64,000 nt of DNA. It comes from Chlamydiota bacterium. GTDB lineage: Bacteria > Chlamydiota > Chlamydiia > Chlamydiales > Parachlamydiaceae. Both the position numbers and the translations under genes were made by a program. The DNA is taken from the NCBI GenBank assembly GCA_013289325.1, contig JABDAE010000002.1, forward strand, positions 1,199-65,198, read 5' to 3'. Positions 14,281 through 63,559 of the stretch are shown here, piece by piece. Under the pieces are notes generated by a model. That model worked only from the letters and a program-made list of their open reading frames with translations. It ran no database searches and was not told the origin of the DNA. Positions within the stretch are counted from its first letter, which is position 1. Each line of letters opens with the position of its first letter.

Positions 14281-14443
14281 CCTAAATCCGGCAGTTGGAG
14301 ACGGCAACTTAACGCAATCTCTTGAACCAGAATCATTTGCAATGGGGTGGTCCTTCACCCTCTGGGAATGTCCCACCCCATTGCAAAGTGATTCTAATTC
14401 AAGATCTTGCATTAATTTGCCATCTCGAACTGCCGGATCTAGG
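14281..14443 (-). mobile_element. 163-bp palindromic MITE-like element, copy 1 (intergenic; TSD TTAAA)
   Basis: Runs cctaaatccggcag...ctgccggatctagg. The 5-mer ttaaa occurs at 14276-14280 and 14444-14448. The strand given is the one carrying the ETAVRD reading mode. Confidence 0.9.
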
Positions 14444-23242: not shown

Positions 23243-25504
23243 ATGTTCGAACTTTCAGTTGCTTTTAAATACCTTATTCCGAGGTGGAAGCAACTTTCTG
23301 TTTCAATTATCAGTTTGGTGTCTATTTTAATCATCGCGCTCGTCGTCTGGCTCATTGTCGTCTTTTTCTCTGTGAAAGATGGCCTTGAAAATAGTTGGGT
23401 AGATAAGATTATCGCCTTAACTGCCCCCATTCGCATGACTCCCACTCATAAGTACTATACTTCCTATTACTACCTTGTCGATGGAATTAGTGAAAGCTCT
23501 AACTATGCGTTGAAGTCCATTGGCGAAAAGCTGCAAAGCAAACACGGCAAAGATCCCTACAATCCTGAAGTCGATGAAGAGATTCCAAAAGAGTGGAGCG
23601 CTAAAGATAGTCAGACGGATGGGGAACTAAAAGATCTCGTCCAAGAGGCTAAAAAAATCATTTTAGCGACCCCTTCTGCTAAAAATCCAGTTGTAAGTCC
23701 ATTTGAAACGACGATGGCAAATGTAAGGCTTCGCTTGCTAAGGCATGTAGATGGCAACAAAGAGCACTCTCAACAGTTTCTCGATCAGGTGGCCTATATC
23801 GGCACCTTCGATAGTGAAAGTAAAACACTTGCCAAGGCGCTTCTTCCCCCAACATCTGCTGACTATCTTAACCTCATACAAATGCAGGCCGTGCTCTCTG
23901 ACAATCTCATTGAAGACAATCCGGACGGCTTTCACCGGGTTGAACCAAATGAGCTTAAACAACGACTTTCAGACCTATTTCAATCAATCGATATCCAATC
24001 CTTAACTCTTCCTCCTCAAGGATGGCGCATTCTGCCCTCTTACTTACCCAAAGGGGCCTCTTTAAAAGTTGCCATCATTGCTAATCGAATTATCCTAGAA
24101 ACGGCAGTTCGAGATGCTAAATTGGCGCAAGATCTTGAATTAGAATCACTTTGCAATGGGGTGGGACATTCCCAAATGGTGAAGGACCACCCCATTGCAA
24201 ATGATTCTGGTTCAAGAGATTGTGTCAAGTTAGCGTCTCCAACTGCCGTTTCTAGGATTATCATCCCACAAAATGCTAAAGACCTTAAAGGCGTTCTTGA
24301 TCAACTCAACAAAAATGTAAAAACGCCTATCGCTATCGAAGGGATTTTACATGTAGAAGAAAACTTAAAGCTTTTAACTCTTGAAAATAAAGAAATTCCC
24401 CTCTTGCCATCGGCAGAATTTATTTTAAAGTCGATTACCCCCTTTAATGCCATTATCGATAAAGACTCTTTTCTACATGCAAGTAGACCACAAGACATTG
24501 CCTTTCAGCTTAAGGACCAAATTCAAGGATATGCCTTTAATGCAACGGCTTCACTTCGCAAATTTGGTATAGGCAAGGTAGTGACTTTAAATGCCACATC
24601 CCTCAAGTTTCTTGCAGAGTCAAGTCATGGAACATCCCTTAATCTCCCAGAAAACCATGGCTTTGGAGAGTCTATCTTACTTCCCAAAGGATTTAAAGAT
24701 GCCGGCGTCTTGATTGGCGATCTCGGTTATATTGCCTACCACTCCCTTACTCCAAGCAGTGTGCAAGAGATGCGCGTACCCGTTTCAGTCGTTGGGTTTT
24801 ATGACCCGGGGATCATGCCAATTGGGGGCAAATACATCTTAGCCTTAAAAGATTTAGTCTCTATGGTAGGAGGAGCGGCCTTAAGCGAGCAGGTGCCCTT
24901 ATCAAGTGGTCTTAACATCCGCTTTGATAATAGCAAAGACGCTAAAAAAATTAAAAAAGAGCTGCAAGATGCCTTTGAAAAGGTGGGGATCTTAAACTAT
25001 TGGAATATTCAAACCTATCAAGAGTATGAATTTTCAAAAGATCTCATCGAGCAGCTGCAAAGCGAGAAAAATCTCTTTAGCGTCATTTCTCTTGTGATCA
25101 TCATCGTTGCCTGCTCCAATATCATCTCAATGCTCTTTATCCTGGTCAACGATAAAAAACTTGAAATCGGCATCTTGCGCTCTATGGGAGCCTCCTCCAA
25201 AAGCATTGCGATCATCTTTGGATTTTGCGGCATGGTAATGGGGGGAATCGGTAGTCTAATCGGCATTTTTGCCTCCGTTCTCACATTGCATTATCTAAAC
25301 GACCTTGTCGCCTTCATTGGCAAAATGCAAGGGCACGATCTCTTTAACCCGATGTTTTACGGCTCGACACTGCCAAGCGAATTAAGCCTTGAGGCATTAG
25401 GCTTTGTCGTCATCACCACAGCTTTTATTTCTCTTATCGCAGGGGTCGTTCCGGCCACAAAGGCAAGCGCTATGCGCCCCTCTGCAATCCTAAAGGCAGA
25501 ATAA
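23243..25504 (+). CDS. LolC/E-like (FtsX/MacB-type) ABC transporter permease with enlarged periplasmic domain and an in-frame 163-bp element
   Basis: N-terminal TM helix. C-terminal FtsX domain (LVNDKKLEIGILRSMGASSKSI plus 3 TM helices). Followed by a LolD-like ATPase. 753 aa. Confidence 0.75.
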   Translation: MFELSVAFKYLIPRWKQLSVSIISLVSILIIALVVWLIVVFFSVKDGLENSWVDKIIALTAPIRMTPTHKYYTSYYYLVDGISESSNYALKSIGEKLQSKHGKDPYNPEVDEEIPKEWSAKDSQTDGELKDLVQEAKKIILATPSAKNPVVSPFETTMANVRLRLLRHVDGNKEHSQQFLDQVAYIGTFDSESKTLAKALLPPTSADYLNLIQMQAVLSDNLIEDNPDGFHRVEPNELKQRLSDLFQSIDIQSLTLPPQGWRILPSYLPKGASLKVAIIANRIILETAVRDAKLAQDLELESLCNGVGHSQMVKDHPIANDSGSRDCVKLASPTAVSRIIIPQNAKDLKGVLDQLNKNVKTPIAIEGILHVEENLKLLTLENKEIPLLPSAEFILKSITPFNAIIDKDSFLHASRPQDIAFQLKDQIQGYAFNATASLRKFGIGKVVTLNATSLKFLAESSHGTSLNLPENHGFGESILLPKGFKDAGVLIGDLGYIAYHSLTPSSVQEMRVPVSVVGFYDPGIMPIGGKYILALKDLVSMVGGAALSEQVPLSSGLNIRFDNSKDAKKIKKELQDAFEKVGILNYWNIQTYQEYEFSKDLIEQLQSEKNLFSVISLVIIIVACSNIISMLFILVNDKKLEIGILRSMGASSKSIAIIFGFCGMVMGGIGSLIGIFASVLTLHYLNDLVAFIGKMQGHDLFNPMFYGSTLPSELSLEALGFVVITTAFISLIAGVVPATKASAMRPSAILKAE
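24094..24256 (+). mobile_element. 163-bp element, copy 2 (in frame inside LolC/E-like CDS; TSD ATTAT)
   Basis: attat occurs at 24089-24093 and 24257-24261. Read as LETAVRDAKLAQDLELESLCNGVGHSQMVKDHPIANDSGSRDCVKLASPTAVSR. Confidence 0.9.
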
Positions 25505-34394: not shown

Positions 34395-34481
34395 TGGAAG
34401 AGGTGAGATTCGAACTCACGTCACCATTGCTAGTGAATCTGTTTTCGAGACAGACGCATTCGGCCACTCTGCCACTCTTCC
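34395..34481 (-). tRNA. tRNA-Ser (anticodon CGA), long variable arm, no encoded CCA
   Basis: Reverse complement: GGAAGAGTGGCAGAGTGGCCGAATGCGTCTGTCTCGAAAACAGATTCACTAGCAATGGTGACGTGAGTTCGAATCTCACCTCTTCCA. Acceptor GGAAGAG/CTCTTCC. Anticodon stem TCTGT/ACAGA with loop CTCGAAA. T-arm GTGAG-TTCGAAT-CTCAC. Confidence 0.85.
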
Positions 34482-34619: not shown

Positions 34620-34782
34620 CCTAAAAACGGCAGTTGGAGACGCTAACTTGACACAATCTCTTGAACCAGAATCATTTGCAGTGGGGCGGTCCTTCACCAA
34701 TCGGGAATGTCCCGCCCCACTGCAAAGTGATTCTAATTCAAGATCTTGCGCCAATTTAGCATCTCGAACTGCCGTTTCTAGG
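34620..34782 (-). mobile_element. 163-bp element, copy 3 (intergenic; TSD ATCAT)
   Basis: atcat occurs at 34615-34619 and 34783-34787. Confidence 0.9.
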
Positions 34783-41171: not shown

Positions 41172-42479
41172 ATGAGACAGTTTTCTGTTCAAAAATCGAG
41201 TTTAAAAGGAGTCATAACAGCTCCTCCCTCTAAATCGCATACCTTGCGCGCGATTCTTTTTGCCTCTTTAGCCAACGGAAAAAGCACGATCTATAATTAC
41301 CTTCAATCGCCCGATACTACAGCCATGATTGAAAGCTGTAGATTATTTGGTGCAAGCCTTAACATATTCCCAACATATCTTGTCATCAATGGTACAGGCG
41401 GAAAAATTGAGCACATAAACCTAAAAAGTGTGATCGATGCGGGTAACTCAGGCATTGTACTGCGTTTTTGTGCAAGTGTGGGAGCTTTAGCTACTACCCC
41501 CTTTATCGTGACAGGCGATCATTCCATTTGCCACCAAAGAAGGATGCAACCGCTCATCGATGGATTAACGCAGCTTGGCGCCTTGGCCATTTCCATGCAA
41601 GGCGATGGCTTTGCGCCTCTTACGATCCAAGGCCCTATTACAGGAGGTGTCGCTTGCATCGACGGAGAGGATTCACAACACGTTTCAGCTCTATTAATTG
41701 CCGCCGCCTTTGCAAATGAGCCCATTGAAATCAAAGTTAATCACCCAGGAGAAAAACCTTGGGTAGCGCTGACACTAGATTGGTTTGATCGCCTCGGTAT
41801 CCCTTACGAAAACAAAGACTTCACCCATTATCGCATAAAGGGAAATAGCCTCTATAATGGATTTGAATATCATGTTCCAGGAGATTTTAGCTCGGCGGCA
41901 TTTCCAATTGCTGCCGCAATCGTCACCAAGTCCAATCTCACCATCCAAAACCTTGACGTATCAGATGTTCAAGGAGATAAAGAGATCATCCCCATTTTGC
42001 AAAAGATGGGGGGTGCAATTGAAATCGACACTTCCACAAAAAGCGTCCGTGTCTTTGGAGAAAACCCGCTCGTAGGCATGCCGATTGACATTAACAATTG
42101 CATTGACGCCATTACGATCTTAGCTGTTATCGCCTGCTTTGCAAAAGGAGAAACTCTGCTTTATAACGGCGCTGTTGCCAAACATAAAGAATGCAACAGA
42201 ATCAAAAGCATTGCCTTTGAGCTTAGTAAAATGGGGGCAAAGATTCAAGAGACTGAAGATGGGCTCCGTATTCAATGTTCAGCTCTTTATGGAGCAAAAG
42301 TTCACTCACATCAAGATCATCGGATGGCAATGTCATTATGCGTAGCAGGCCTTACAGCTGAAGGAACCACTCACATTTCTTCTATTGAATGCGTCGCCAA
42401 GACCTTTGCCACCTTTCATGAGGACTTTAAGGCAATTGGCGCCATAATCAAAGAAACGGCTGTTCGAGATGGCAAGTAA
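41172..42479 (+). CDS. aroA: 3-phosphoshikimate 1-carboxyvinyltransferase (EPSP synthase); last 8 codons and stop derive from a repeat remnant
   Basis: APPSKSHTLRAILFASLA, DAGNSGIVLRF and HQDHRMAMSL motifs. The C-terminus ...IKETAVRDGK* is element-derived. Confidence 0.95.
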   Translation: MRQFSVQKSSLKGVITAPPSKSHTLRAILFASLANGKSTIYNYLQSPDTTAMIESCRLFGASLNIFPTYLVINGTGGKIEHINLKSVIDAGNSGIVLRFCASVGALATTPFIVTGDHSICHQRRMQPLIDGLTQLGALAISMQGDGFAPLTIQGPITGGVACIDGEDSQHVSALLIAAAFANEPIEIKVNHPGEKPWVALTLDWFDRLGIPYENKDFTHYRIKGNSLYNGFEYHVPGDFSSAAFPIAAAIVTKSNLTIQNLDVSDVQGDKEIIPILQKMGGAIEIDTSTKSVRVFGENPLVGMPIDINNCIDAITILAVIACFAKGETLLYNGAVAKHKECNRIKSIAFELSKMGAKIQETEDGLRIQCSALYGAKVHSHQDHRMAMSLCVAGLTAEGTTHISSIECVAKTFATFHEDFKAIGAIIKETAVRDGK

Positions 42480-42491
42480 TAGACATCTTGC
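42446..42491 (+). repeat. Degenerate partial copy (TSD-like ATAAT plus first ~41 nt) of the 163-bp element
   Basis: ataatcaaagaaacggctgttcgagatggcaagtaatagacatcttgc versus ataatcctagaaacggcagttcgagatggcaaattaatgcaagatcttg at 42492-42540. Confidence 0.75.
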
Positions 42492-42496
42492 ATAAT

Positions 42497-42659
42497 CCTA
42501 GAAACGGCAGTTCGAGATGGCAAATTAATGCAAGATCTTGAATTAGAATCACTTTGCAATGGGGTGGGACATTCCCAAAGGGTGTTGGACCACCCCATTG
42601 CAAATGATTCTGGTTCAAGATCTTGCATTAATTTGCCATCTCGAACTGCCGGATTTAGG
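42497..42659. mobile_element. 163-bp element, copy 4 (intergenic, chimeric; outer ~29 bp of stem perfectly base-paired from position 16 inward; TSD ATAAT)
   Basis: ataat occurs at 42492-42496 and 42660-42664. Left arm ...ttcgagatggcaaattaatgcaagatcttgaa. Right arm ttcaagatcttgcattaatttgccatctcgaa... Confidence 0.9.
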
Positions 42660-42701: not shown

Positions 42702-43211
42702 TTAAGTCTTGACGTACATCCCACTATACTGCTCTCGAAGGGACGTATTCCTGGAATCGATATAGAAGATCATGTCCTTTTTAAGTAGTTGCTCATACCG
42801 CTCAAACACCTGGTCTGTCGATTGAATCACAGGACCTAGAAGACCTGTACAGTGGAAAATCTGGTCGGCAGCCAAAGCAATGGCGACATGCGAGATGAGG
42901 TTTGGCAGCTCTCGCCGTTTTAGGAAAAGCAGATCTCCTGTTTTAAGCTCGGCAGCATCGATAATGTGCAAGTCCCAATGAGATAGGCTCATTAGACGAG
43001 GCATATCTCCAATCCAGGCACGAGGAAGGTTGATCTGAAAGACCTTTTGCATAAGGTAATGAACCGCCGTCACACAATCGGTTTTTGCAGGAGCCTCTTT
43101 GAGTGATACCGTGCGTTGATAAGAAGAGCATTTCAACTCAGATACCGCGACATTTAAAACCTTTTGATCAACGGGTAAATCACGAGAAAAACGGAGGACT
43201 GCAACTGTCAT
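42702..43211 (-). CDS. NlpC/P60-like (C40) cysteine peptidase domain protein
   Basis: Cys in DCVTAVHYL and His in ISHVAIAL, with GDLLFL between them, as in NlpC/P60. Confidence 0.55.
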   Translation of the reverse strand: MTVAVLRFSRDLPVDQKVLNVAVSELKCSSYQRTVSLKEAPAKTDCVTAVHYLMQKVFQINLPRAWIGDMPRLMSLSHWDLHIIDAAELKTGDLLFLKRRELPNLISHVAIALAADQIFHCTGLLGPVIQSTDQVFERYEQLLKKDMIFYIDSRNTSLREQYSGMYVKT

Positions 43212-44587
43212 CTAACCTCTTGCTTTCTTGCTAAAGGCTTTAACAACAACACTCCTGCAGTAGAAACCCCTAGGATCACTAGGGGCAGGGCGGCTGTCCA
43301 TGTGAGGCCGGTTTGAACCACGAGAAAGGTCGCAACGGCGGGCATGGGGGCACCGAAAAACTTAGATCCAAAAGTGGAGGCCAGGCTTCCGATGAGAAAC
43401 CGGTGGTGGGTGGGAAGGTGCTCAAGTTTCCAGGCGTGATAGGGAGCAGCGAGGGCAACGCCGAAGGTAACAAAGAGGAGACGGACCATAGCGGCATGTC
43501 CCCAGGAAGCGTTGTCCAGGGATGCGAAAAGAGGGATGGCAAAAAAGGCTGTGAGCAAAGCCGCGGTGGCCATCAGCTTTTCTTGGGAGATCCAACGACA
43601 AAGGAAGCCGAAGCCGAGCAAGAGGAAAAAGTCGATCCAGAGCAGATGAGTGTTGAAGAGAAGAACATCGGCTCTGGAAAGGTCGGTGATTTTAGGAAGG
43701 AAGCCATTGAGAAAAACTGTCACGAGAAAATAGTTAGCATATGAAAATCCTGAAACGATCGAAATGCGAAAGATAAGATGTTTGTTCTCCCAGAGGATTT
43801 TCCAAGAAAAGGGGGCAGGTTTGAACTCGGGAGATTCTTCCGCATGGTACCGGAAGAAGAGACCAAACAGGCCTGCAGCGGCTCCAAGCCAAAAGAGGAG
43901 CCTCCAGTGGTTTTCGCCAAACTGACTGGCTAGAGCTGAGGCCAAAAAGATCCCAAGGATTCCAGAGGCATCGTAGAGGGCGCTCATCCACGGCCGTTTT
44001 TCCAAAGCAGTGTGTTCCAGGAGGTAGAGGGCAGCTCCTTTTTCTTCTCCTGCTGCAAAAAATCCCTGGAAGAGACGACAAAAGGCCAGCACAATCCAAG
44101 CATTCTGCGTAAGAGGCAAACACCCCATGGCAGACGTCGATAGTGCCATTCCAATGAGGCTATTGATCAACGCCGGTTTTCTTCCCCATCGATCTCCCAC
44201 CCATCCCCAAAAGAGGGCTCCGAGCGGCTTTGCTAGTACCCTAAGGGGAAGAAGAGCAAAGATCAAAAAAAGAGCCTCCATTCCCTCTTTTCCTGGGAAA
44301 AGAATGGGGGCCAAAAAAGGAGCCATCCACCCAAAAAGCGAAGAGTCGTAGTGGTTAAGAACATTGCCAATCAGGGCGCCAGCCTGGCTTGCGCTCAAGC
44401 GATGACGTAAAGAAACTTTTCCCACACTCCCTCCGCTAGTATGACCTAGATCAGGTTCTAAGGGTTGGTCGTAGTGACCTTTCAGCCCACAATTGAGGGC
44501 ACCCCTGGTGAACGAGTACGATTTTAACGAACCACCTCTTGATTTGTCAAGACAGATAAAATCCTTGCGAAAAATCTTCCTTAGCAA
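43208..44587 (-). CDS. MFS transporter (metabolite:H+ symporter / ProP-like); start codon uncertain
   Basis: 12-TM pattern. GWVGDRWGRKPAL (MFS motif A). Noticeably G+C-rich. The first ~55 aa of the track ORF are not transporter-like; a GTG after GGAGGGAG near 44422 is an alternative start. Confidence 0.75.
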   Translation of the reverse strand: MLRKIFRKDFICLDKSRGGSLKSYSFTRGALNCGLKGHYDQPLEPDLGHTSGGSVGKVSLRHRLSASQAGALIGNVLNHYDSSLFGWMAPFLAPILFPGKEGMEALFLIFALLPLRVLAKPLGALFWGWVGDRWGRKPALINSLIGMALSTSAMGCLPLTQNAWIVLAFCRLFQGFFAAGEEKGAALYLLEHTALEKRPWMSALYDASGILGIFLASALASQFGENHWRLLFWLGAAAGLFGLFFRYHAEESPEFKPAPFSWKILWENKHLIFRISIVSGFSYANYFLVTVFLNGFLPKITDLSRADVLLFNTHLLWIDFFLLLGFGFLCRWISQEKLMATAALLTAFFAIPLFASLDNASWGHAAMVRLLFVTFGVALAAPYHAWKLEHLPTHHRFLIGSLASTFGSKFFGAPMPAVATFLVVQTGLTWTAALPLVILGVSTAGVLLLKPLARKQEVR

Positions 44588-48481: not shown

Positions 48482-51400
48482 CTATTCAAGAAGATGTCTA
48501 ATATACGCTTTGTCCTCAAAAGCCCTGCTATATAGCTCTTGCACGACCCTTTTTCGTCTTGAGGGAGCATTCAATAAAGCGACGACATTTGGGTACTTAT
48601 CTGCTTCCACTAAACGCGCAATGGCAAGGCAGACACCTCGGCTTGCAGGTGCAAATGCTTGCAATTCAAGAAGCCATCGCACCAGATTTTCATCTCCTCC
48701 AATTGCCGCATTTCGCAAGATAAAGAGATGATGGAGATAAGGAATACGGGAATTATTTGAATAATACAAACTCACAACTGAATATACCCCATGAAGCGCT
48801 CCTCTTTTTGCTAAATCATACTGCAAATCCCCTTTGCAGCTAGAAAGGGAAGTCAGATAAATGACAATGTCTTGATAACCTCTTACGGCAGCTGCTTGTG
48901 CAGCTTTTTCTAGCGCGCTATCGGATATGCCTATTTCCGAAATATTTAACCATTTCCTTTGCTCGGCAAAGTGGAGAATGACAGATAGCTTGTTGCGGCA
49001 CGCGGCCACATAAATGGCAAGCGTTCGCCATTTGTCTACCCCATCAGAAGTTATTTCTGCGCCCCAATTGACTAAGAGATCAAGAGATTCTAATGGAACT
49101 TGCGGCTCTTTTATCGCGATCTCAATGGCTTTAGCAATGGCTTCATCCCTTTTATCGTCTGAAAACAGATCTGAGGCAAGAAGAGCCTGTACTGCATGGA
49201 CCTTATTTACCTGAGTAGCACTGTTTAAGCAGCCTTGAAGCTCTTTTTGAGTGATATCAGGACCGCCTTTATGAAGAATTTCTTCTGTAAGAGACGAGGC
49301 TACATGGATATGTCCATTGCTTAAGGCAAGGAGACGATATTTGTTTAACCTAGAAACGGCAGTTGCAGACACTAACTTGACACAATCTATTGAACCAGAA
49401 TCATTTGCAGTGGGGCGGTCCAACACCCTTTGGGAATGTCCCGCCTCACGGCAAAGTGATTCTAATTCAAGATCTTGTGCTAATTTTGCATCTGGAACTG
49501 CCGTTTTTAGGTTTAACCCATCGGCTTGCATGAAACTAAACAGTTTTTGTAAAGTCAAGATCAGCCCTTCTTTTGCACATACTTCCATGACAAAATCCAA
49601 ATAGTCATTTTGCAGATTTCTATCTATCTTATATTTGCCGGCATCTATTAATACCTCTATCGCACTTATCTGTTGATTTGCTCCAGCTTCTTCTATCGCC
49701 TTTTTTAAATCATCCAAGGTAAGCCATAAGGTAAGTACTCCTTGTAAGAGCGAGATATCTCCTGTTTTAGCGGCAAGACAAAGCAGCTCTTGAGGTGTTG
49801 ATTTAACAAAAGAGATCAAACGTTGTAGTGTTTTAGGATATTTCCCTTTTAATGCGAGGAAAATGAGCGTTTGTCCATCGAGGTGGCTCTTAAATTTCTT
49901 TAAGATAATATCGAGAATTGCCATCTCTTGGTCTGTAGGTACTTCAAGAGTTATGATCCTCTCAAGCTCTGATTGACAGTGTGAAAGAGATAAGACGTAC
50001 TCGGCTAATATAGCGCAAATGGCTGCTCTGTTGTTTGCAGCATCGTTGTTTACAGTATCTAAGAGAGTCCAAAGAAACTCTAACGACGGAAAGCATCCAC
50101 TAAATACTTCAGTAATGAGTGCGTATTTTGCAAGCTGCTTTGCAATAGTGATAAATTCGATATAATTTTCGACTTCTCTTTGCTTTTGATCGACATTTAG
50201 ACTGATGGCCTCTTTGGGATGCAAGAGGTCATTAAGTAGACGATTATTGCCTATCTTAACGCAAGAATACAGGGCCATTTTCACGTTCTCATTTGAAAGA
50301 CATTGTGGGAGTATTTTAAAAGTGGTTTTTTTCGATATAGCACCTATATAAGCATCCCAATCCTTACTTACGAGATTTCTTCCCTCTATAAGGGCTTCAA
50401 AACACCAAAAAGAGTTTTCTTCAATTGAAAGAAAAGTAGCCGTATCAAGGCAGTCCTCTGAAAGCTTTTTGTGTCTTCTAATGAATCCTATCGATACAAA
50501 ATCTCTTTTTATGACAAGCTCTTGCAAAAGTTTTTCTAAATCCTCTATAGAGAATAAAAGGGTGATATCGCGTAAAGTATTTTTGTTTACGCTCTCATCG
50601 CTTGTCAAAATCTCTGCCCACTTCTCCATGGAAGGGGGACAGCATTTAAATACCATAAGCTGCAACTCTTGAGGTTTACCTGCATACTTTAGCACAATTT
50701 GGTTCCAAATCGCCGCAGTTAGAGGAAATTTTTGCAAAAAGCGAGTAAGCATATCAAAGGCTTCTTTTTCAAGCGCCGCATCAACGACAAGCCAATGCCC
50801 TTCTGCAGTGAGTTGAATCTCACTTTCTAAAACGAGCTCCAATACATCAACAGATTGCGTCTCCATCAAATGGCAAAGAAGTGCTTGATCATCCTCATTA
50901 ATTGGCTTTTTCATCCCCTTTTTCATGTCTTGAAAAAGAAGCTCTTTAAGTATTATTGGGCATCTGGAATCAATTGCGACTTTTTTGGCTAAAGTGCTTT
51001 CCAAATGAGGCAACAGTTGGGATAGCCATTGGGTTAACTGTTTGTCTGTCCTCTCTTTTTCTGCTAGAGTAAAAATCTCTCCTAAAATCATTTCAGCTTT
51101 GGGATTTTTTCCTATTTGAGCAGCGAAAACATAAAAAATATGATGCAGCTTAGCATCTTTAATAGTGAGGCTCATCATTTTATGTATCGCCTCATGAGAG
51201 GGAGGCCGCATTGTAAAGGCAACGCTTGTGGTCTTTAAATCGCAGCCGAGCTGAACAATTGTGAAAAAATCTTGATCGATGTTTGCCTTGTCGCTTTCTT
51301 TATAAAAGGGATACCGCAGCAAAGCTAAAAGAAAATCATGGTTTACACCATGATCGCTTGCTACTTGCAAAAGGTCATCTTGCGTTTCCTTTGTTTGAGG

Positions 51401-51880
51401 TGTCTTGCAATGGTCAAGAACCTTTAAAATGTTGTCAAAACGCCTTGCCCTAATTGCCAATGCAATCTTTTCTTTGATGGGATTGTAAAAGTGAGTTTTC
51501 CCATTGATATTACCAATTAGCCCTGGTGCTCCCCTTAAAGAGGTAATTTTGTATTGGCAAATAGGGCAATCAAAAGCGATATTTTCGCCACCTGTAGTAA
51601 TGCCGGCAAGCTCTTTTGCGCATTTTTTATGCATACCATGAAGGATCGCACGCTGGATTGCATCATGACCATGCCCAGACATCAATTGTTTTTTTGTTTT
51701 GTCAGAATCGGAAGGTTTTACATGGACAAGAATCGCACTATCTTTAACCCCAGCTCTCATCTCTTTGCGGCACACTGGGCAATCCCCAAGACTGCCGACT
51801 GCATTAGTCACAAGGAACATTTCTGCAGGATTTCTATCAATTATTAAAGGTGTTAAAGGTGTACCAACAGCACTGCTCAT
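48482..51880 (-). CDS. Eukaryote-like RING-type zinc-finger plus ankyrin-like repeat protein (candidate effector) with an in-frame 163-bp element
   Basis: N-terminal CPVC-x33-HGH-x11-HKKC-x17-CPIC cross-brace-like pattern. C-terminal helical repeats of the type AAVRGYQDIVIYL and AAIGGDENLVRWLLE. 1132 aa. Confidence 0.5.
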   Translation of the reverse strand: MSSAVGTPLTPLIIDRNPAEMFLVTNAVGSLGDCPVCRKEMRAGVKDSAILVHVKPSDSDKTKKQLMSGHGHDAIQRAILHGMHKKCAKELAGITTGGENIAFDCPICQYKITSLRGAPGLIGNINGKTHFYNPIKEKIALAIRARRFDNILKVLDHCKTPQTKETQDDLLQVASDHGVNHDFLLALLRYPFYKESDKANIDQDFFTIVQLGCDLKTTSVAFTMRPPSHEAIHKMMSLTIKDAKLHHIFYVFAAQIGKNPKAEMILGEIFTLAEKERTDKQLTQWLSQLLPHLESTLAKKVAIDSRCPIILKELLFQDMKKGMKKPINEDDQALLCHLMETQSVDVLELVLESEIQLTAEGHWLVVDAALEKEAFDMLTRFLQKFPLTAAIWNQIVLKYAGKPQELQLMVFKCCPPSMEKWAEILTSDESVNKNTLRDITLLFSIEDLEKLLQELVIKRDFVSIGFIRRHKKLSEDCLDTATFLSIEENSFWCFEALIEGRNLVSKDWDAYIGAISKKTTFKILPQCLSNENVKMALYSCVKIGNNRLLNDLLHPKEAISLNVDQKQREVENYIEFITIAKQLAKYALITEVFSGCFPSLEFLWTLLDTVNNDAANNRAAICAILAEYVLSLSHCQSELERIITLEVPTDQEMAILDIILKKFKSHLDGQTLIFLALKGKYPKTLQRLISFVKSTPQELLCLAAKTGDISLLQGVLTLWLTLDDLKKAIEEAGANQQISAIEVLIDAGKYKIDRNLQNDYLDFVMEVCAKEGLILTLQKLFSFMQADGLNLKTAVPDAKLAQDLELESLCREAGHSQRVLDRPTANDSGSIDCVKLVSATAVSRLNKYRLLALSNGHIHVASSLTEEILHKGGPDITQKELQGCLNSATQVNKVHAVQALLASDLFSDDKRDEAIAKAIEIAIKEPQVPLESLDLLVNWGAEITSDGVDKWRTLAIYVAACRNKLSVILHFAEQRKWLNISEIGISDSALEKAAQAAAVRGYQDIVIYLTSLSSCKGDLQYDLAKRGALHGVYSVVSLYYSNNSRIPYLHHLFILRNAAIGGDENLVRWLLELQAFAPASRGVCLAIARLVEADKYPNVVALLNAPSRRKRVVQELYSRAFEDKAYIRHLLE
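49349..49511 (-). mobile_element. 163-bp element, copy 5 (in frame inside RING/ankyrin CDS; TSD TTTAA on plus strand)
   Basis: tttaa occurs at 49344-49348 and 49512-49516. Read on the minus strand as LKTAVPDAKLAQDLELESLCREAGHSQRVLDRPTANDSGSIDCVKLVSATAVSR. Confidence 0.9.
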
Positions 51881-53669: not shown

Positions 53670-53675
53670 AAACAC

Positions 53676-56820: not shown

Positions 56821-57826
56821 GCAAGGTGTAGTAAGAGAAATTCTTAAAGGCTGCCACCCCAATCCTAAAGAGGTGGGCAAGGCCTTTGCCCCAAGCAATA
56901 TTGCCCTTTGCAAATATTGGGGGAAAAGGGATGCGCTTCTCAATCTACCCTTAACATCAAGCCTTTCGATCTCCTTAAAAGACGCCGGCACAACGACAAA
57001 GGTTCAATCTTCAAGCGTAAACGAAGATAAAATCATATTTGCTGGGGAAAGACTGCCCAATGATTGCCCCTTTGCTAAAAAGACTATTGAATTTATCAAT
57101 CTATTCCGCCCTTCAAAAGACTTTTGCTTTAAGATCACAACAAAGAACAATATCCCAACAGCAGCAGGACTTGCTTCATCTGCAAGTGCCTTTGCCTCAT
57201 TGGTTTTAGCTCTAAACGATTTTTTTCAATACAACCTAAGTAGGCAAGAGCTATCGATCCTGGCAAGACTTGGCAGCGGCAGTGCCTCTCGCTCCCTTTG
57301 GCATGGCTTTGTGGAATGGCACGCGGGCAGCCGCCCAGACGGAATGGACTCATTTGGCACTCCCCTTCCAACAGTTTGGCAATCCCTTTGCATTGGCCTT
57401 CTTATCTTTGATACAAAGCCAAAATCGATCAGTTCAAGAGATGCGATGCAACGCACGAAAGAAACTTCTCAGCTTTATAAGAAATGGGAAGAAGAAGTTG
57501 CAAAGGACCTTTGGCAAATTAAAGAGGCTATACGTACCTTAGATTTTCACCTGCTCGGCAAAACAGCTCAAGATAATGCCCTAAAAATGCACGCGACCAT
57601 GCAAGATGCAAGTCCTCCCATCGACTATTGCAGCCATGAAACATACGCAGCAAGAGAGCAGATTAAAAAGTATCAAGAAGAGGGGCTGCCTATCTACTTT
57701 ACACAAGATGCGGGCCCAAATCTTAAAATCCTTTTCGAAGAAAAGGACATATCCCCCATCATTGAAAAGTTTGGGAATATCAAGATCATTAAGCCGTTTT
57801 CGGTACTCTACGGAACAACATCGTAG
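56813..57826 (+). CDS. mvaD: Diphosphomevalonate decarboxylase
   Basis: APSNIALCKYWGKRD, PTAAGLASSASAFASL and GSGSASRS motifs. Confidence 0.9.
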   Translation: MNKQGVVREILKGCHPNPKEVGKAFAPSNIALCKYWGKRDALLNLPLTSSLSISLKDAGTTTKVQSSSVNEDKIIFAGERLPNDCPFAKKTIEFINLFRPSKDFCFKITTKNNIPTAAGLASSASAFASLVLALNDFFQYNLSRQELSILARLGSGSASRSLWHGFVEWHAGSRPDGMDSFGTPLPTVWQSLCIGLLIFDTKPKSISSRDAMQRTKETSQLYKKWEEEVAKDLWQIKEAIRTLDFHLLGKTAQDNALKMHATMQDASPPIDYCSHETYAAREQIKKYQEEGLPIYFTQDAGPNLKILFEEKDISPIIEKFGNIKIIKPFSVLYGTTS

Positions 57827-57989: not shown

Positions 57990-58262
57990 ATGAAAACAAG
58001 CCACAAAAGCAAAGCCACGGTTCGCGTAAGGGGTCGATATACAGTTCGCTTAACTGCCAAATATCAGGCTACCATACCCAGAGAAATTAGAAAACAGCTC
58101 CATCTTGTCGCTGGAGATGAAATTGTCTATGAATTATTGCCAGATGATACTGTGATTGTGCGAAAATCATCTCCATTAGATATCCATTATTATCATGCGC
58201 TACACCCAACGCTCAGTGAATGGGAGGCTGAAGATGATGAACAAGCCTATAAAAACTTATGA
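57990..58262 (+). CDS. AbrB/MazE/SpoVT-type antitoxin
   Basis: LTAKYQATIPREIRKQLHLVAGDEIVYEL swapped-hairpin motif. GAGGT RBS lies 6 nt upstream. Confidence 0.8.
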   Translation: MKTSHKSKATVRVRGRYTVRLTAKYQATIPREIRKQLHLVAGDEIVYELLPDDTVIVRKSSPLDIHYYHALHPTLSEWEAEDDEQAYKNL

Positions 58263-58596
58263 ACGATACGAGGTTGTAAAAGTCCCTTTCCCTTTTACAG
58301 ATTCAAAAACATCAAAAGTTAGGCCTGCTCTTATTCTATCATCTGCTAAAACTTTTAACTCAAAAGTTGGTTTGAGTATCATGATTATGATCACTTCGAT
58401 GAAAGAATCCAAAGATTTGTGGGCTTCGGATCTCATTATTGATGATCTCAAGGCCGCAGGTCTACCAGTTCCGTCCATTATCCGCTTTAAACTTTTTACT
58501 CTTGACGATCGCCTTATTATTGGACCCCTTGGCATACTCGCAGAACGCGATTGTAAGAAAATGAAAGATAAACTTACTGAAATACTAATTTTATAA
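58234..58596 (+). CDS. MazF/PemK-family toxin
   Basis: YEVVKVPFPFTDSKTSKVRPALILSS pattern. GGGAGG lies 6 nt before the ATG at 58234. Overlaps the antitoxin 3' end. Confidence 0.75.
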   Translation: MMNKPIKTYERYEVVKVPFPFTDSKTSKVRPALILSSAKTFNSKVGLSIMIMITSMKESKDLWASDLIIDDLKAAGLPVPSIIRFKLFTLDDRLIIGPLGILAERDCKKMKDKLTEILIL

Positions 58597-58635: not shown

Positions 58636-59736
58636 ATGGCAAGTAATACATTCGGCAACTTATTTAAGATCACGACATGGGGTGAGTCTCACGGCAAAGC
58701 GATTGGCGTTGTCATTGACGGCTGCCCGGCAGGCCTTCACATCAATGAAGATGAGATCAATCAGCTTTTGAGGCTAAGAGCGCCGGGAAGGTCTCCTCAC
58801 ACATCGCCAAGAAAAGAGAGCGACCTTGCAGAGATCTTATCCGGCGTATATGAAGGACAAACGACTGGCGCCCCAATTTCGATCATCATCTACAATCAAG
58901 ACAAAGATTCAAGCAAATATGAGCCGATAAAAGACTTGTTAAGACCTGGACATGCCAACTATACATATCTCAGTAAATATGGGATCTTCGACTTTAGAGG
59001 CGGTGGAAGAGCGTCTGCAAGAGAAACCGCTTGCCGAGTTGCAGCAAGCGCTATTGCCAAAAAACTTCTCCATCACAATGGGATAGCAATTACTGCTTAT
59101 GTTGTACAAATTGGGGATGTACAGGCAAAAATCGATGAGAAAGAGATAGAAGAGATTAGCTTAAAAACATACCAAGACGTCAATTTTTGCCCGGACCCCA
59201 CCGCATCCTCTAAAATGAGTGCCTTGATTGCACAATCGATGGAGCAAAAAGACACATTAGGAGGCGTTGTAGAATTTATTGTAAGGAATGTTCCAGCAGG
59301 ACTTGGCGATCCCGTCTACCAAAAACTTGAGGCAAGACTTGCCGATGCGATGCTTTCAATCCCTGCAGCAAAGGGGTTTGAAATCGGATCCGGATTTAAA
59401 TCAGCCTCAATGCAAGGCTCAATACATAATGATCTTTTTACCTTCGAAGGTGCCCAAGTCAAAACCGAAACTAACTTTTCTGGAGGCACATTAGGAGGCA
59501 TTTCAAACGGCATGCCCCTCATCGGAAAAGTGGCCTTTAAACCAACTTCGAGTATCATGAAAAAGCAAAAGACCTTGACAGTTACAAACGAGAAGGCCGA
59601 TATCGAGTTGCCGCAAGGGTCAAGACACGACCCGTGCGTTGCTATTCGCGCTGTTCCGGTCGTTGAGGCAATGGCCGCTTTAGTTCTTGTCGATGCATTG
59701 CTGCTCAATAGATTAGCGAGGCTATCTTGGAACTGA
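58636..59736 (+). CDS. aroC: Chorismate synthase
   Basis: FGNLFKITTWGESHG, RPGHANYTY and GGGRASARET motifs. Confidence 0.95.
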   Translation: MASNTFGNLFKITTWGESHGKAIGVVIDGCPAGLHINEDEINQLLRLRAPGRSPHTSPRKESDLAEILSGVYEGQTTGAPISIIIYNQDKDSSKYEPIKDLLRPGHANYTYLSKYGIFDFRGGGRASARETACRVAASAIAKKLLHHNGIAITAYVVQIGDVQAKIDEKEIEEISLKTYQDVNFCPDPTASSKMSALIAQSMEQKDTLGGVVEFIVRNVPAGLGDPVYQKLEARLADAMLSIPAAKGFEIGSGFKSASMQGSIHNDLFTFEGAQVKTETNFSGGTLGGISNGMPLIGKVAFKPTSSIMKKQKTLTVTNEKADIELPQGSRHDPCVAIRAVPVVEAMAALVLVDALLLNRLARLSWN

Positions 59737-60860
59737 CGTTAACGACAAAACAAGAAAGAGTCTCAAATATTACTATCTACCCTTCATTGTTACAAGATTT
59801 CAACTGCCTAAAAGACGCGCTCTCATCGCTTGATAAATCAAAACCAATTGCCATCATCACAGATTCCAACGTCGAAAAACTCTACGGAAGATCTTTGCAA
59901 GAAAATTTACTTTCTTTGAATTTTAAGACCCATATATTTCACTTTCCAGCAGGAGAAACGAGTAAAACAAGGGCCACAAAAGAAAGCATCGAAAATCAGA
60001 TGCTAGAAAATGGCCTTACGGCAGATCTTTATATCTTTGCACTTGGGGGCGGCGTTGTCACAGACATTGCGGGCTATATCGCCGCAACTTTTTGCCGGGG
60101 TGTCCCTTTAATTGCGATTCCCACATCTTTGACCGGCATGATCGATGCCTCCATAGGCGGCAAGAACGGGATCAGTGTGCCGCAAGGAAAAAACTTAATC
60201 GGCACCATCTATCAACCTAAAATGATCTTAATCGATTTATCGCTCCTTAACACCCTTTCAAAAAAAGAGCTGCGAAATGGGGCCATAGAAATGGTCAAGC
60301 ACGGCCTCGTGGCAGATCGCGCCCACTTTGACTACCTTGAAACTCATGCAGATCAAATCCTTGCATTAACCCCATCGACACTTAAAAAAGCTGTTTATGA
60401 TAGCTGCCAAATCAAGGTAAAAATCGTAGAAAGCGATGAAATAGGTGTTGGGCAAAGGCATCTTCTCAATTTTGGCCATACAATCGGACATGCATTAGAA
60501 AAACTAACCCATTACACAATGTCGCATGGAGAGGCCGTTGCCATCGGTATCCTTGTCGAAAGTTATTTAGCGTGTCTTTTAAACTACCTAAAACCCTCTT
60601 GTTTTGAAAGAATTAAAGCCATTTTTAACAAATATCAACTTCCCCTCTCTCTTCCCTACAAAATTCCAATCGACGAAATGTTAAACGCCATGGCGCTTGA
60701 TAAAAAGACGTTAAATGGAGAAAGGCGCTTTGTAATCCTTCAAGACATTGGCCATGCCAGCTCCTTTGAAGGCAAATTTTGTACCCCTGTCGACTTATCT
60801 CTTATAAAAAATGCCCTATCGTGGATGAATAGTGATATTACATTCGGCTATTTAAGATGA
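59727..60860 (+). CDS. aroB: 3-dehydroquinate synthase
   Basis: ALGGGVVTDIAGYIAATFCRGVPLIAIPTSL, NFGHTIGHALE and HGEAVAIG motifs. Confidence 0.9.
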   Translation: MELTLTTKQERVSNITIYPSLLQDFNCLKDALSSLDKSKPIAIITDSNVEKLYGRSLQENLLSLNFKTHIFHFPAGETSKTRATKESIENQMLENGLTADLYIFALGGGVVTDIAGYIAATFCRGVPLIAIPTSLTGMIDASIGGKNGISVPQGKNLIGTIYQPKMILIDLSLLNTLSKKELRNGAIEMVKHGLVADRAHFDYLETHADQILALTPSTLKKAVYDSCQIKVKIVESDEIGVGQRHLLNFGHTIGHALEKLTHYTMSHGEAVAIGILVESYLACLLNYLKPSCFERIKAIFNKYQLPLSLPYKIPIDEMLNAMALDKKTLNGERRFVILQDIGHASSFEGKFCTPVDLSLIKNALSWMNSDITFGYLR

Positions 60861-62620
60861 TTTGCGCCGTCATTAAGGTAGAAAATTACTTAAGTGCCTA
60901 TCAAGAGATTCGTGAGGCAGCCTTAACAGCTGAGATGATTGAGCTTAGACTCGACTATCTTCTTCATCTCGACTTTTCAGAAATTAAGCGCTTAAGAGAA
61001 GAGTGCAAGGTGGCCGTCATCATCACTTTGCGAAGCAATAAAGAAGGGGGACATTATAAAGGATCTGAAAAGACAAGACTTAAAATGCTATTAAAGCTTG
61101 CTGCTTTAAATCCCGATTATCTAGACATCGAACACCATGTATCAAAGCCATTCATTAAGGCAATTGCAAATAAACACCCCACAATTGGCATCATCATCTC
61201 CTATCACAATTTTACAAATATGCCAAAGAATCTAAACAAAATCTATAAGGCTTTGCAAAGACATAAAGCACATTATTACAAAATTGCCGCCACAGCAAAA
61301 TCATCTCTTGATGCGCTAAGGCTTCTTTGTTTTTCCAAATCTAAAAATCCAAATCTCATTGCAGTTAGCATGGGATCAATTGGACAATTTGGCCGCATCA
61401 TCGCTCATCATATGGGATCTCCCATCACCTACGCTATCCTCAGTGAAGAAAAAAAGACAGCTCCTGGACAGCTTACGATAGAGGAGCTGACCAAGCAGTA
61501 TCGCTACAGCTCTTTTAATAGCATATATGCTTTAATCGGAGATCCAATAGATTTAAGCATAAGCCACATCACCCATAATCAAACATTTGAAAAATTAGGG
61601 CTCTTTGCAGTCTATATTAAAATTGCCCTAAAAGAAAATGAGATAAAGACATTTTTAACATATGTCAAAAAACTCCCTTTCAAAGGCTTAAGCGTGACAA
61701 TGCCTTTAAAAGAGGCTATCATCCCCTATTTAGATGAGATCGATGACGAGGCAAAAGCGATTGGCGCAATCAACACGCTTGTCATTCAAAATCACAAAAT
61801 CATCGGATTTAATACAGATGGAAAAGGGGCTCTTGATGCCATCCAGCAATCCTTTAACCTAGAAACGGCAGTTCGAGACGCTAAATTGGCGCAAGATCTT
61901 GAATTAGAATCACTTTGCAGTGGGGCGGGACATTCCCAAGTGGCGAAGGACCGCCTCACTGCAAATGATTCTGGTTCAAGAGATTGTGTCAAGTTAGCGT
62001 CTCCAACTGACGTTTTTAGGTTTAATACTTCAAGTACCCTAAACAAGCGCATACTCGTATTAGGCGGCGGAGGAGCTGCTAAGGCGATCATGTATGAAGC
62101 AAAAAAAAGAGGCGCTGTTGTTTATACGATGTTGCGCGATCCCCTTAAAGCAAAAGAGCTGCAAAGCAAATACGGCTATGCAGCTTTCGCATTTAACCTA
62201 GAAACGGCAGTTCGAGATGGCAAATTAATGCAAGATCTTGAATTAGAATCACTTTGCAATGGGGTGGGACATTCCCAAATGGTGAAGGACCACCCCATTG
62301 CAAATGATTCTGGTTCAAGAGATTGCGTTAAGTTGCCGTCTCCAACTGCCGTTTCTAGGTTTAATGACCCCAATATAGACATTGTCGTCAATTGCACGCC
62401 GGTAGATTTTGAAGAATTTGCGCCTCAAATGCAAACAGCAATCGATGCGATGATTGAAAATAAAGCCCTTTTCATGGACATTAAAACGAAACCAAAAGAC
62501 TCAATTCTTCTGACAAAAGCCAAAACAAATGGCTGCCCTATTGTCTATGGCCATCAGATGTTTGCATTGCAGGCGGCGCTGCAATTTAAACTTTGGACTA
62601 AGAGTTCAACTACTCCGTGA
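60857..62620 (+). CDS. aroDE: Bifunctional 3-dehydroquinate dehydratase (type I) / shikimate dehydrogenase, carrying two in-frame 163-bp elements
   Basis: N-terminal AroD-like half (MIELRLDYL...YHNF). C-terminal AroE motifs SVTMPLK, NTDGKG, VLGGGGAAKAI and VNCTPV. 587 aa = 475 + 2x56. Confidence 0.9.
   Translation: MICAVIKVENYLSAYQEIREAALTAEMIELRLDYLLHLDFSEIKRLREECKVAVIITLRSNKEGGHYKGSEKTRLKMLLKLAALNPDYLDIEHHVSKPFIKAIANKHPTIGIIISYHNFTNMPKNLNKIYKALQRHKAHYYKIAATAKSSLDALRLLCFSKSKNPNLIAVSMGSIGQFGRIIAHHMGSPITYAILSEEKKTAPGQLTIEELTKQYRYSSFNSIYALIGDPIDLSISHITHNQTFEKLGLFAVYIKIALKENEIKTFLTYVKKLPFKGLSVTMPLKEAIIPYLDEIDDEAKAIGAINTLVIQNHKIIGFNTDGKGALDAIQQSFNLETAVRDAKLAQDLELESLCSGAGHSQVAKDRLTANDSGSRDCVKLASPTDVFRFNTSSTLNKRILVLGGGGAAKAIMYEAKKRGAVVYTMLRDPLKAKELQSKYGYAAFAFNLETAVRDGKLMQDLELESLCNGVGHSQMVKDHPIANDSGSRDCVKLPSPTAVSRFNDPNIDIVVNCTPVDFEEFAPQMQTAIDAMIENKALFMDIKTKPKDSILLTKAKTNGCPIVYGHQMFALQAALQFKLWTKSSTTP
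61858..62020 (+). mobile_element. 163-bp element, copy 6 (in frame in AroE domain; TSD TTTAA)
   Basis: tttaa occurs at 61853-61857 and 62021-62025. Confidence 0.9.
62197..62359 (+). mobile_element. 163-bp element, copy 7 (in frame in AroE domain; TSD TTTAA)
   Basis: tttaa occurs at 62192-62196 and 62360-62364. Confidence 0.9.
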
Positions 62621-62692: not shown

Positions 62693-63559
62693 CTAAAAAG
62701 TTTTCATTTCTTGAACAAAGTGGCAAAACATCTCTTTTGTCCAAGAGTTAATTGCTTCTAGATCGGGTGCAAAGGGGCGAATATCATTACGAACACTTTC
62801 TAAGTCAATCGATTCAATTTTATCCAACATCATTTGATCAAATATTTCTCTGGTTAACCACTTCTCTTGGGGGAGAAATCCAGAGTTATGTAAATGAATA
62901 GAGAGCCTTTGAAGATTTAATGAAGTCCCTTTTCGAACAAACCACAACCAATCATACCAGTCCCGTCCTTTGACCCTCTTTTTCCATTCTCGAAATAGGA
63001 GAGCATGCATTTTACCTGCAAAGATGTCTTCTAAAATCACTATTTTAATTCCCACTAACGCGGGAGCTTTAAGAAAGTGGATATCGGTCCGATAAGCTGG
63101 GGCAGGATCGGTATCCACTTCAACTTTAATTTTCAATGTCGTTTCATAGTGAAATCCCTTCACAAGGTTTTTTGGGATCCCAATTTTGATCAATTCGTTA
63201 AGAGTATTGGTCTTTATAAATGCAGATTGAACAGGCGTTTGCAAGACTTTGTTTTTAGTCTCTACCGTAACATCAAAACCATACGACTCTAATTCATTTC
63301 GGATACATGAGTTATATTCACTAAGAGAAAAGTCTTTATGAGAAAAGAGTAATGTAAAGTCTAGATCTTCAGAAAAACGATCTAACCCATGCAGTATGCG
63401 AAGAGCCGTCCCCCCGTAAAATGCAGCATGTTCAAAAAAATGTCCTCTCCATAACCCTACTAAGGCAACCTCTTGTAAAATTTCTTTAAGAGCCCTTTCA
63501 TACTCCATCCTAGTTTCACATTTGTAGTGTTTGAGCATGGCTTGAATTGCCTGATTCAT
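62693..63559 (-). CDS. abiEii: Nucleotidyltransferase AbiEii/AbiGii-family toxin
   Basis: FYGGTALRILHGLDRFSEDLDF motif. 288 aa. 4-nt overlap with the upstream gene. Confidence 0.8.
   Translation of the reverse strand: MNQAIQAMLKHYKCETRMEYERALKEILQEVALVGLWRGHFFEHAAFYGGTALRILHGLDRFSEDLDFTLLFSHKDFSLSEYNSCIRNELESYGFDVTVETKNKVLQTPVQSAFIKTNTLNELIKIGIPKNLVKGFHYETTLKIKVEVDTDPAPAYRTDIHFLKAPALVGIKIVILEDIFAGKMHALLFREWKKRVKGRDWYDWLWFVRKGTSLNLQRLSIHLHNSGFLPQEKWLTREIFDQMMLDKIESIDLESVRNDIRPFAPDLEAINSWTKEMFCHFVQEMKTF

Follow-up and report, generated by a model that had tools for sequence, protein, structure and literature searches.

Two in-frame copies of a palindromic miniature transposon, probably derived from an IS1380-like insertion sequence, in the aroDE gene of a chlamydial bacterium

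To our knowledge, selfish DNA that resides within protein genes is so far essentially tied to the Rickettsia palindromic elements (RPEs), for which we know of no defined terminal inverted repeats (TIRs), target site duplication (TSD) or transposase. In Ogata et al. 2000 (Science 290:347) and Ogata et al. 2002, RPEs were reportedly described as lying in frame in Rickettsia genes. A review presents RPEs as in-frame palindromic repeats in protein genes that are tolerated, and also treats other MITEs (miniature transposable elements with inverted repeats) sometimes present in open reading frames (ORFs), namely intragenic ERIC, Correia/NEMIS, pneumococcal BOX and Anabaena MITEs (PMC10969869). The present analysis covered a 64-kb window (the whole stretch of DNA considered here, 64,000 nucleotides) of the genome of a Parachlamydiaceae bacterium (contig JABDAE010000002.1), and concerns a 163-bp palindromic element, two copies of which lie in frame in the gene of the bifunctional enzyme AroDE.

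The element and the RPEs are both palindromic, hairpin-forming, multicopy repeats of about 100–160 bp in an obligate intracellular bacterium, and both are often found in frame in unrelated housekeeping genes, encoding a peptide judged compatible with the fold of the host protein. The host lineages are unrelated, and the element is likened to the RPEs by its manner of working, not by sequence. For the element, unlike the RPEs, 21-bp TIRs and a 5-bp TSD are clearly recognisable and full-length insertion sequence (IS) relatives are identifiable, and its family spans metagenome-assembled genomes (MAGs) of both Chlamydiales and Verrucomicrobiae. With the other MITEs it shares short non-autonomous inverted repeats, hairpins and occasional in-frame fusions; however, in those MITEs intragenic copies are exceptional, while four of the seven copies of the window lie in long ORFs, and both size classes of the element (163 and 91 bp) obey the rules of a footprint divisible by three and an open frame. 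The open-access literature yielded no description of the element or of in-frame MITEs in chlamydiae, nor of any in-frame, coding-compatible MITE derived from IS1380. In-frame palindromic repeats are already known as such; new are the family, the phylum, the transposon pedigree, the spread across phyla and the presence of two size classes.

The two 56-codon blocks of aroDE are separate insertions of one non-autonomous miniature transposon. Both blocks start with CCTAGAAACGGCAGTTCGAGA and finish with its inverted complement, the ends of the first block (copy 6) reading CCTAG...CTAGG. The whole element is a near-perfect palindrome with TIRs of about 21 bp (CCTARAWMCGGCAGTTSSAGA). Its 20-nt terminus occurred 14 times in the window against an expectation of 0.01, and these matches defined seven full copies, so that the dispersed nature of the two aroDE blocks, as proposed from the sequence alone, was confirmed. 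Each 163-bp copy in aroDE is surrounded by a 5-bp TTTAA duplication, and therefore exactly 56 codons were added per copy: the unit of element plus one TSD is 168 bp, corresponding to residues 335–390 for copy 6 and 448–503 for copy 7. The sequence-only reading had placed the target in the codon phase TTT-AA|C, and direct reading gave Phe-Asn junctions at both inserts, ...QQSFN-LETAVRDAKLAQ...DVFRFN-TSS... at the first and ...AFAFN-LETAVRDGKLMQ...AVSRFN-DPN... at the second, with the common pattern F-N-LETAV...(F/S)R-F-N. Also the positions held in the alignment of homologues: the first insert follows the NTDGKG motif, between FNTDGKG...AIQQSFN and KRILVLGGGGAAKAI, and the second lies between KYGYAAFAFN and DPNIDIVVNCTPV.

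When both units were removed, a protein of 475 aa remained, which aligned end to end as a single domain of 600 bits with a hidden Markov model (HMM) built from 119 AroDE homologues of the chlamydial type; the AroE motifs are thus uninterrupted, as had been claimed. Against the same HMM the native protein was split into three pieces, altogether 572 bits, with the breaks exactly at the inserts. None of the 119 listed homologues, about 457–538 aa in length, carries either insert. A Logan contig of an independent assembly (SRR8426800) runs across copy 6 at its left junction and contains a substitution peculiar to this copy; it ends 25 nt into the element, where a repeat-induced assembly break is expected.

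The two aroDE copies agree in orientation, in their TTTAA target and in codon phase, and they are only 176 bp apart, all of which would suit an origin of one from the other by local duplication. The copies, however, belong to different subfamilies: they differ at 19 of the 163 positions, in paired subtype-specific blocks, and each is nearer to a distant copy, copy 6 to copy 3 (six differences) and copy 7 to copy 1 (seven differences), 27–48 kb away. Each also has a TSD of its own, and the flanks are otherwise unrelated. The pre-insertion aroDE contains 70 sites of the target consensus WTNAW, 29 of them in phase; TTTAA accounts for only five of the in-phase sites, and the two insertions occupy two of these five. 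The subtype assignment effectively refutes local duplication, and the two insertions were independent, as originally suggested.

All seven copies of the window (Table 1) are flanked by 5-bp TSDs, TTTAA being found three times and TTAAA, ATTAT, ATGAT and ATAAT once each, and among 28 copies from several genomes the TSD consensus was WTNAW. Copy 2 is a mosaic, its outer stem being of the copy 6 type (AKLAQ) and its inner stem of the copy 7 type (NGVG), and therefore stem modules assort or recombine between the subfamilies. Copy 6 has five private substitutions in comparison to the other window copies. At the end of aroA (41172..42479) a 47-bp partial left end precedes copy 4, and the C-terminus of the protein, ...GAII-KETAVRDGK-stop, is located within this partial element. 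The pentamer ATAAT is present there three times (42445, 42492 and 42660), which suggests repeated insertion at one target and a later internal deletion. The host protein of copy 5 was recovered again, as P0147, in the peptide search described below. A shared orthologous insertion beside tRNA-Ser was considered for copy 3 and rejected, as the other copies with an ATGAT duplication have no tRNA. An internal terminator or promoter was likewise rejected, the scan counts being equal to the shuffled expectation.

By its nature and origin the element is almost certainly a MITE that belongs to a clade of IS1380-like insertion sequences. It is short, transposase-free and present in many dispersed copies, and both its TIR and the length of its TSD match those of autonomous ISs. 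The first 16 nt of the MITE, CCTAGAAACGGCAGTT, are identical at 16 of 16 positions to the right end of an IS of about 1.63 kb on a Polaromonas plasmid, which is flanked by a 5-bp TTAAA duplication. The transposase of this IS is 46.6% identical to that of a full IS in Hyphomicrobiaceae (locus L004), in which a 528-aa ORF lies between CCTAAAACCAGCAGTTGGAG, a MITE-like TIR, and its inverted copy. The ORF matches Pfam DDE_Tnp_1_4 above the cut-off, and its best NCBIfam match is IS1380 with 170.7 bits (E 3.9e-50), just below the cut-off of 180 bits. In tblastn comparisons, transposases of this type showed 22–26% identity to annotated IS1380 and ISEcp1 transposases (about 22% to ISEcp1). To judge from these scores, they are related to IS1380 yet appear to form a distinct clade. 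Among 80 metagenome relatives of the transposase, 34 had paired ends with CCTARAWMCGGCAGTT termini 1625–1690 bp apart. The terminus variants CCTAAAAACGGCAGTT, CCTAGATCCGGCAGTT and CCTAAATCCGGCAGTT were all found as ends of 1.6-kb metagenome ISs, and the ATCC variant of window copies 1 and 4 was also present among such ends. Several of the 34 had matching TSDs of 5 bp, and the 5-bp duplications of the full-length ISs include TTAAA, TTGAT, ATTAT, TTGAG, CTGAA, TTGAA and ATCAG.

With the IS1380 family, for example its best-known member ISEcp1, the element thus shares the tips CCTAGA / CCTAAA and AT-rich 5-bp TSDs, and the ISs bearing the exact 16-nt tip of the MITE encode a DDE_Tnp_1_4 / IS1380-like transposase. 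Unlike the IS1380 ISs, the element has no transposase and is a palindrome over its full length rather than two joined IS ends. On the Polaromonas plasmid (CP087967.1, locus L049) a solitary extra terminus, CCTAGAAACGGCAGTTGAATG, was noticed at locus position 2405, about 360 bp past the right end of the IS; it could mark another, truncated element or be an alternative end.

The element is compatible with coding sequence in several respects. Its footprint, 163 + 5 = 168 bp, is a multiple of three, and in each of the seven window copies, whether in an ORF or (in three cases) intergenic, frame 1 has no stop in either orientation, while the remaining four frames contain 2–6 stops each; for these two reasons the frame of the host gene stays open. 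Where the first base of a WTNAW target is also the first of a codon, the junction codons are Phe, Leu, Ile or Met followed by Asn or Ile, and therefore no stop arises at insertion. The footprint and frame rules also hold for a 91-bp derivative, which has lost 72 bp (24 codons) of the apex, has a 96-bp footprint with the TSD and is open in frame 1 both ways. The encoded peptides are mildly hydrophilic, with a grand average of hydropathy (GRAVY) of -0.33 to -0.44 compared to -0.08 for the AroDE core.

As RNA, each copy folds into a hairpin from end to end with about 72 pairs, the minimum free energy (MFE) being -108.2 kcal/mol (z -15.9) for copy 6 and -115.8 kcal/mol (z -18.9) for copy 7. In an alignment of 28 copies, tested with 500 shuffles and with slid controls, standard pairs were present in 90.9% of the cells and both sides had changed in 24 of the 72 pairs. 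None of the 500 shuffles reached the observed values of pairing and covariation, and the slid controls were 37–50% paired. The hairpin is maintained by compensatory changes, and also the subfamily marks AKLAQ / GKLMQ and SGAG / NGVG are paired changes, in the outer and the inner stem respectively. The strands are not equal: the RNA of the + strand was the more stable one in 27 of the 28 copies (mean -106 vs -92 kcal/mol), about eight stem positions being predominantly U·G on this strand. In all four in-ORF copies of the window the mRNA is of + strand sense, and those outside the window are found in both orientations, about 9 to 3. Candidate explanations for the upkeep of the pairing are a requirement of transposition, an effect at the RNA level and intrastrand correction.

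Hairpins of this kind recall the translational bypass elements (the gap of T4 gene 60 and the mitochondrial 'byps' of Magnusiomyces), which are mobile, hairpin-forming inserts in coding sequence with matching flanking codons. Bypass elements are shorter, need neither an open frame nor a length divisible by three, and depend on a signal behind the take-off codon, either a stop or a stall. The inserts might accordingly be absent from mature AroDE, either through excision of the hairpin, for example by RNase III cleavage, and religation, or through ribosomal bypass between the duplicated TTT-AAY codons. Such removal would suit the very stable hairpin of each insert, its conservation by compensatory changes and the identical, TSD-made Phe-Asn codons on both sides, and the stronger + strand, achieved with G·U pairs, fits selection on a single-stranded form. 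A footprint divisible by three and a stop-free frame in every copy and both orientations would nevertheless be needless if the inserts were skipped, the would-be take-off codon is not followed by a stop codon, and in-frame copies occur in both orientations. The element shares with bypass elements the hairpin and the matching flanking codons, whereas the other bypass hallmarks were not seen in it. Removal is therefore disfavoured, and we regard it as extremely unlikely. If it were true, the mitochondrial byps would have a counterpart on a bacterial chromosome, and also the other host proteins would lack the 56 residues. A self-splicing intron and an intein were considered separately and rejected, which also counts against removal: at the gathering threshold no Rfam family, introns included, was found in the region, the only Rfam matches of the window being a thiamine pyrophosphate (TPP) riboswitch and tRNA, and the element is a simple hairpin; no Hint or intein domain was matched in Pfam, the first residue of the insert is Leu, and its length of 56 aa is well below that of any intein.

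Beyond the window, dozens of copies of the element were found in MAGs in a scan for the terminus that covered one genome per species. The Chlamydiales MAGs CAWHVD01, CAMAVL01, CAMAUB01 and JAYRNE01 contain many full-length copies. Full-length copies were present also in three Verrucomicrobiae MAGs, on long contigs of up to 886 kb, which implies either horizontal spread within the Planctomycetes–Verrucomicrobia–Chlamydiae (PVC) group or mis-binning. When the 56-aa peptide was searched against 1.84 billion representative proteins (E-value <= 0.001), 107 of them matched. Many of these are short ORFs called on intergenic copies. Others are genuine proteins in which the peptide lies within or next to recognised domains, the named hosts being a histidine kinase, a metallo-β-lactamase / glyoxalase II, an S41 peptidase with PDZ, a cyclase, a chorismate-binding enzyme, an outer-membrane protein and FtsQ. 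A different chlamydial MAG has in-frame copies in LipA (lipoyl synthase) and Lnt (apolipoprotein N-acyltransferase), in the opposite orientation, and in a serpin in the same orientation. The palindromic element thus sits in frame in genes of unrelated proteins, at sites that suit the fold, to judge from the model of AroDE.

An AlphaFold2 (AF2) model of AroDE, built with the 119 homologues, puts both inserts between secondary-structure elements. Its mean predicted local distance difference test score (pLDDT) is 86, with block means of 94–98 through residue 330 and of 84–95 across the Rossmann strands and the C-terminal region. In a Foldseek comparison with Arabidopsis DHQ-SDH (2O7S), the template modelling score (TM-score) normalised by the target was 0.80. 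The first insert lies between helix 321–355, the last of the substrate domain, and strand β1 (398–402), and the second between β3 (442–445) and β4 (509–512) of the Rossmann fold. The pLDDT falls below 50 at 362–390 and 460–496, the apical parts of the inserts. The corresponding segments of the Arabidopsis enzyme are unaligned loops of about 12 residues, and both insertion regions are variable in length among the orthologues. According to the model, the inserts would thus be situated in peripheral loops of the NADP-binding Rossmann domain, around a confidently predicted core.

The 56-aa loops could also have been co-opted, for example as an interaction surface or in regulation, and be kept by selection at the protein level. 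The mild hydrophilicity of the two AroDE peptides (GRAVY -0.38 and -0.44) would allow this, as would the recurrence of the family in many proteins, and the first ~20 residues of insert 1 were modelled as an extension of the helix, with pLDDT falling from ~77 to ~60. Yet four of the five private substitutions of copy 6 alter an amino acid, the intergenic copies encode the same peptide, the host proteins are functionally unrelated, and the apical half of each insert has a pLDDT below 50. Co-option appears very unlikely on these grounds.

Pfam detected DHquinase_I (161.6 bits), Shikimate_dh_N (87.9 bits) and a partial SDH_C. Of 38 columns without variation among the orthologues, 37 are conserved in the window AroDE, and both of its domains have their conserved motif residues: H117 and K142 of the dehydroquinase and K285 and D321 of the dehydrogenase motifs are invariant across all 120 sequences, and are probably catalytic, judging from their motif context. 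The GGGGAAKA loop is also present. The NADP-binding domain PF01488, which nearly every one of the 119 listed homologues shows, was undetected in native AroDE, because the two inserts hide this domain from profile searches.

Three outcomes had been left open by the sequence-only reading, namely tolerated loops, removal of the inserts and an inactive gene. The first of these is favoured, short of proof, by the variable loops, the confident core of the model, the retained invariant residues, the lack of any acceleration specific to this gene in comparison with the neighbouring AroC, and the in-frame copies in intact enzymes. It is fairly probable that the inserts are translated and AroDE is still functional, and translation as tolerated, largely disordered loops is the most likely reading, by analogy with the RPEs and given the structural model. 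A DDE transposase supplied in trans would insert the element at WTNAW pentamers, which become duplicated. Where the target pentamer starts at codon position 1 (TTT-AAC, Phe-Asn), 56 mildly hydrophilic residues would join the protein with the host frame intact. The surviving copies would be those that landed in length-variable loops, in AroDE the linker before β1 and the β3–β4 connection, from which the extra residues could extrude without disturbing the core.

Several observations weigh against this account. With regard to the transposon, phmmer with the transposase found no match in the window or in 46 genome loci except L004 itself, and the full-length relatives retrieved (the 80 metagenome relatives) were all from high-GC, non-chlamydial DNA. 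The two mRNA hairpins of ~72 pairs could hinder translation or become targets of RNase III, and the AF2 alignment was uninformative over the inserts, so that the 'disordered loop' partly reflects absent data. Furthermore, the protein is the most divergent of the 120, keeping 85.9% of the columns conserved at >=90%, while the orthologues keep at least 90.1% and on average 96.5%. At well-conserved positions it has the unusual substitutions G8V, P9E, Q17E (a site invariant elsewhere) and N426L (in the NRD motif of the NADP site, which follows β2), and it lacks ~16–20 C-terminal residues of the orthologues, that is, the C-terminal helix. The possibility that the TGA at 62618 is a nonsense mutation masking this helix found no support, as read-through adds no HMM alignment.

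The divergence, the substitutions Q17E and N426L and the loss of the helix would suit a gene that was inactivated by the insertions, or that was already under relaxed selection when hit: a young pseudogene still free of stops and frameshifts, with aromatics obtained from the host or by another enzyme. Both inserts hit one small domain, that of the undetected PF01488, and obligate intracellular bacteria frequently lose biosynthetic genes. However, AroC, used as a control with no insert, is also an outlier of its own set (0.919 vs a minimum of 0.928), and its relative excess distance is 1.35 compared to 1.24 for AroDE. As the uninterrupted AroC is equally outlying, the divergence is lineage-wide and not specific to AroDE, and gene-specific decay was rejected as its explanation. 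Also the genome is AT-rich and yet the frame is still open over 587 codons, aroC, aroB and aroA have strong scores and no damage, the invariant residues are retained with one exception, and both inserts are in loops. The five private changes of copy 6 in a gene that is still open point weakly in the same direction. An inactive aroDE remains the main rival, although a rather unlikely one. For a comparison with empty sites, no close relatives were present in a collection of 5.8 billion proteins, where the closest AroDE has ~50% identity and the closest AroC 72%; no record with exactly the AroDE sequence was found.

The best matches of the window proteins are from Parachlamydiaceae, i.e. chlamydia-like. 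The genes aroC, aroB and aroDE overlap by a few bases and therefore form an operon-like unit. Toxin genes were noticed on both sides of it: a PemK/MazF-like toxin just upstream of aroC (58195–58596), to which the Logan annotation adds a MazE antitoxin, and an AbiEii nucleotidyltransferase toxin just downstream of aroDE on the other strand (62693–63559). Further upstream (52632–57826) there is a complete-looking mevalonate cluster with 3-hydroxy-3-methylglutaryl coenzyme A (HMG-CoA) reductase, HMG-CoA synthase, two GHMP kinases and diphosphomevalonate decarboxylase; chlamydiae normally take the methylerythritol phosphate (MEP) route. The TPP riboswitch (RF00059, 67 bits) is situated on the minus strand at 44410–44516, at the 5' end of a major facilitator superfamily (MFS) transporter ORF (43208..44587). 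The ORF overlaps the riboswitch, and therefore its real start is probably further downstream.

Table 1. Coordinates of aroDE, of the element copies and of associated features. Positions refer to the window unless a locus name is given.
Feature	Position	Strand	Description	Basis
aroDE	60857..62620	+	bifunctional type I 3-dehydroquinate dehydratase / shikimate dehydrogenase, 587 aa (475 aa plus two inserts of 56 aa)	
MITE copy 6	61858..62020	+	163 bp, 'AKLAQ / SGAG' subtype	alignment of 7 copies, nhmmer 185.7 bits
TTTAA TSD of copy 6	left 61853-61857, right 62021-62025			direct sequence reading
MITE copy 7	62197..62359	+	163 bp, 'GKLMQ / NGVG' subtype	copy alignment and nhmmer
TTTAA TSD of copy 7	left 62192-62196, right 62360-62364			direct sequence reading
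Predicted tryptic peptide			DAKLAQDLELESLCSGAGHSQVAK, example from within the inserts	
Hypothetical junction peptide			...AIQQSFNTSSTLNK, example from the AroDE sequence without the inserts	
MITE copy 1	14281..14443	-	intergenic, TSD TTTAA, termini of CCTAGATCC / CCTAAATCC type	
MITE copy 2	24094..24256	+	in frame in 753-aa FtsX-like permease ORF (23243..25504), TSD ATTAT	
MITE copy 3	34620..34782	-	intergenic, 139 bp from tRNA-Ser (34395-34481), TSD ATGAT	
Partial left end, 47 bp	42445-42491		precedes copy 4; gives aroA its last 9 codons and stop	
MITE copy 4	42497..42659	+	just 3' of aroA, TSD ATAAT	
MITE copy 5	49349..49511	-	in frame in 1132-aa ankyrin-repeat ORF (48482..51880, minus strand), TSD TTAAA	
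91-bp derivative	L003:2896-2986, L040:6013-6103, L043:749-839		chlamydial MAG and bin labelled Acidobacteria	
Full-length copies, 162-163 bp	L005:4204-4366, L034:7233-7394, L035:6913-7074		three Verrucomicrobiae MAGs	
aroC and aroB	58636..60860	+	intact	NCBIfam chorismate synthase 457 bits, AroB 358 bits

In genomes rich in the element, annotation is affected in practical ways: protein lengths are inflated, domains are hidden from profiles, as with PF01488 in AroDE, spurious small ORFs are called, and short-read assemblies break at the ends of the element. The two 56-residue loops in a Rossmann domain of ~170 residues are a natural experiment on the tolerance of this fold to insertions. The visible TIRs, TSD and IS relatives of the element make the origin and movement of coding-compatible elements testable, and the family would be the second clear case of selfish DNA suited to protein genes, in another phylum of obligate intracellular bacteria.

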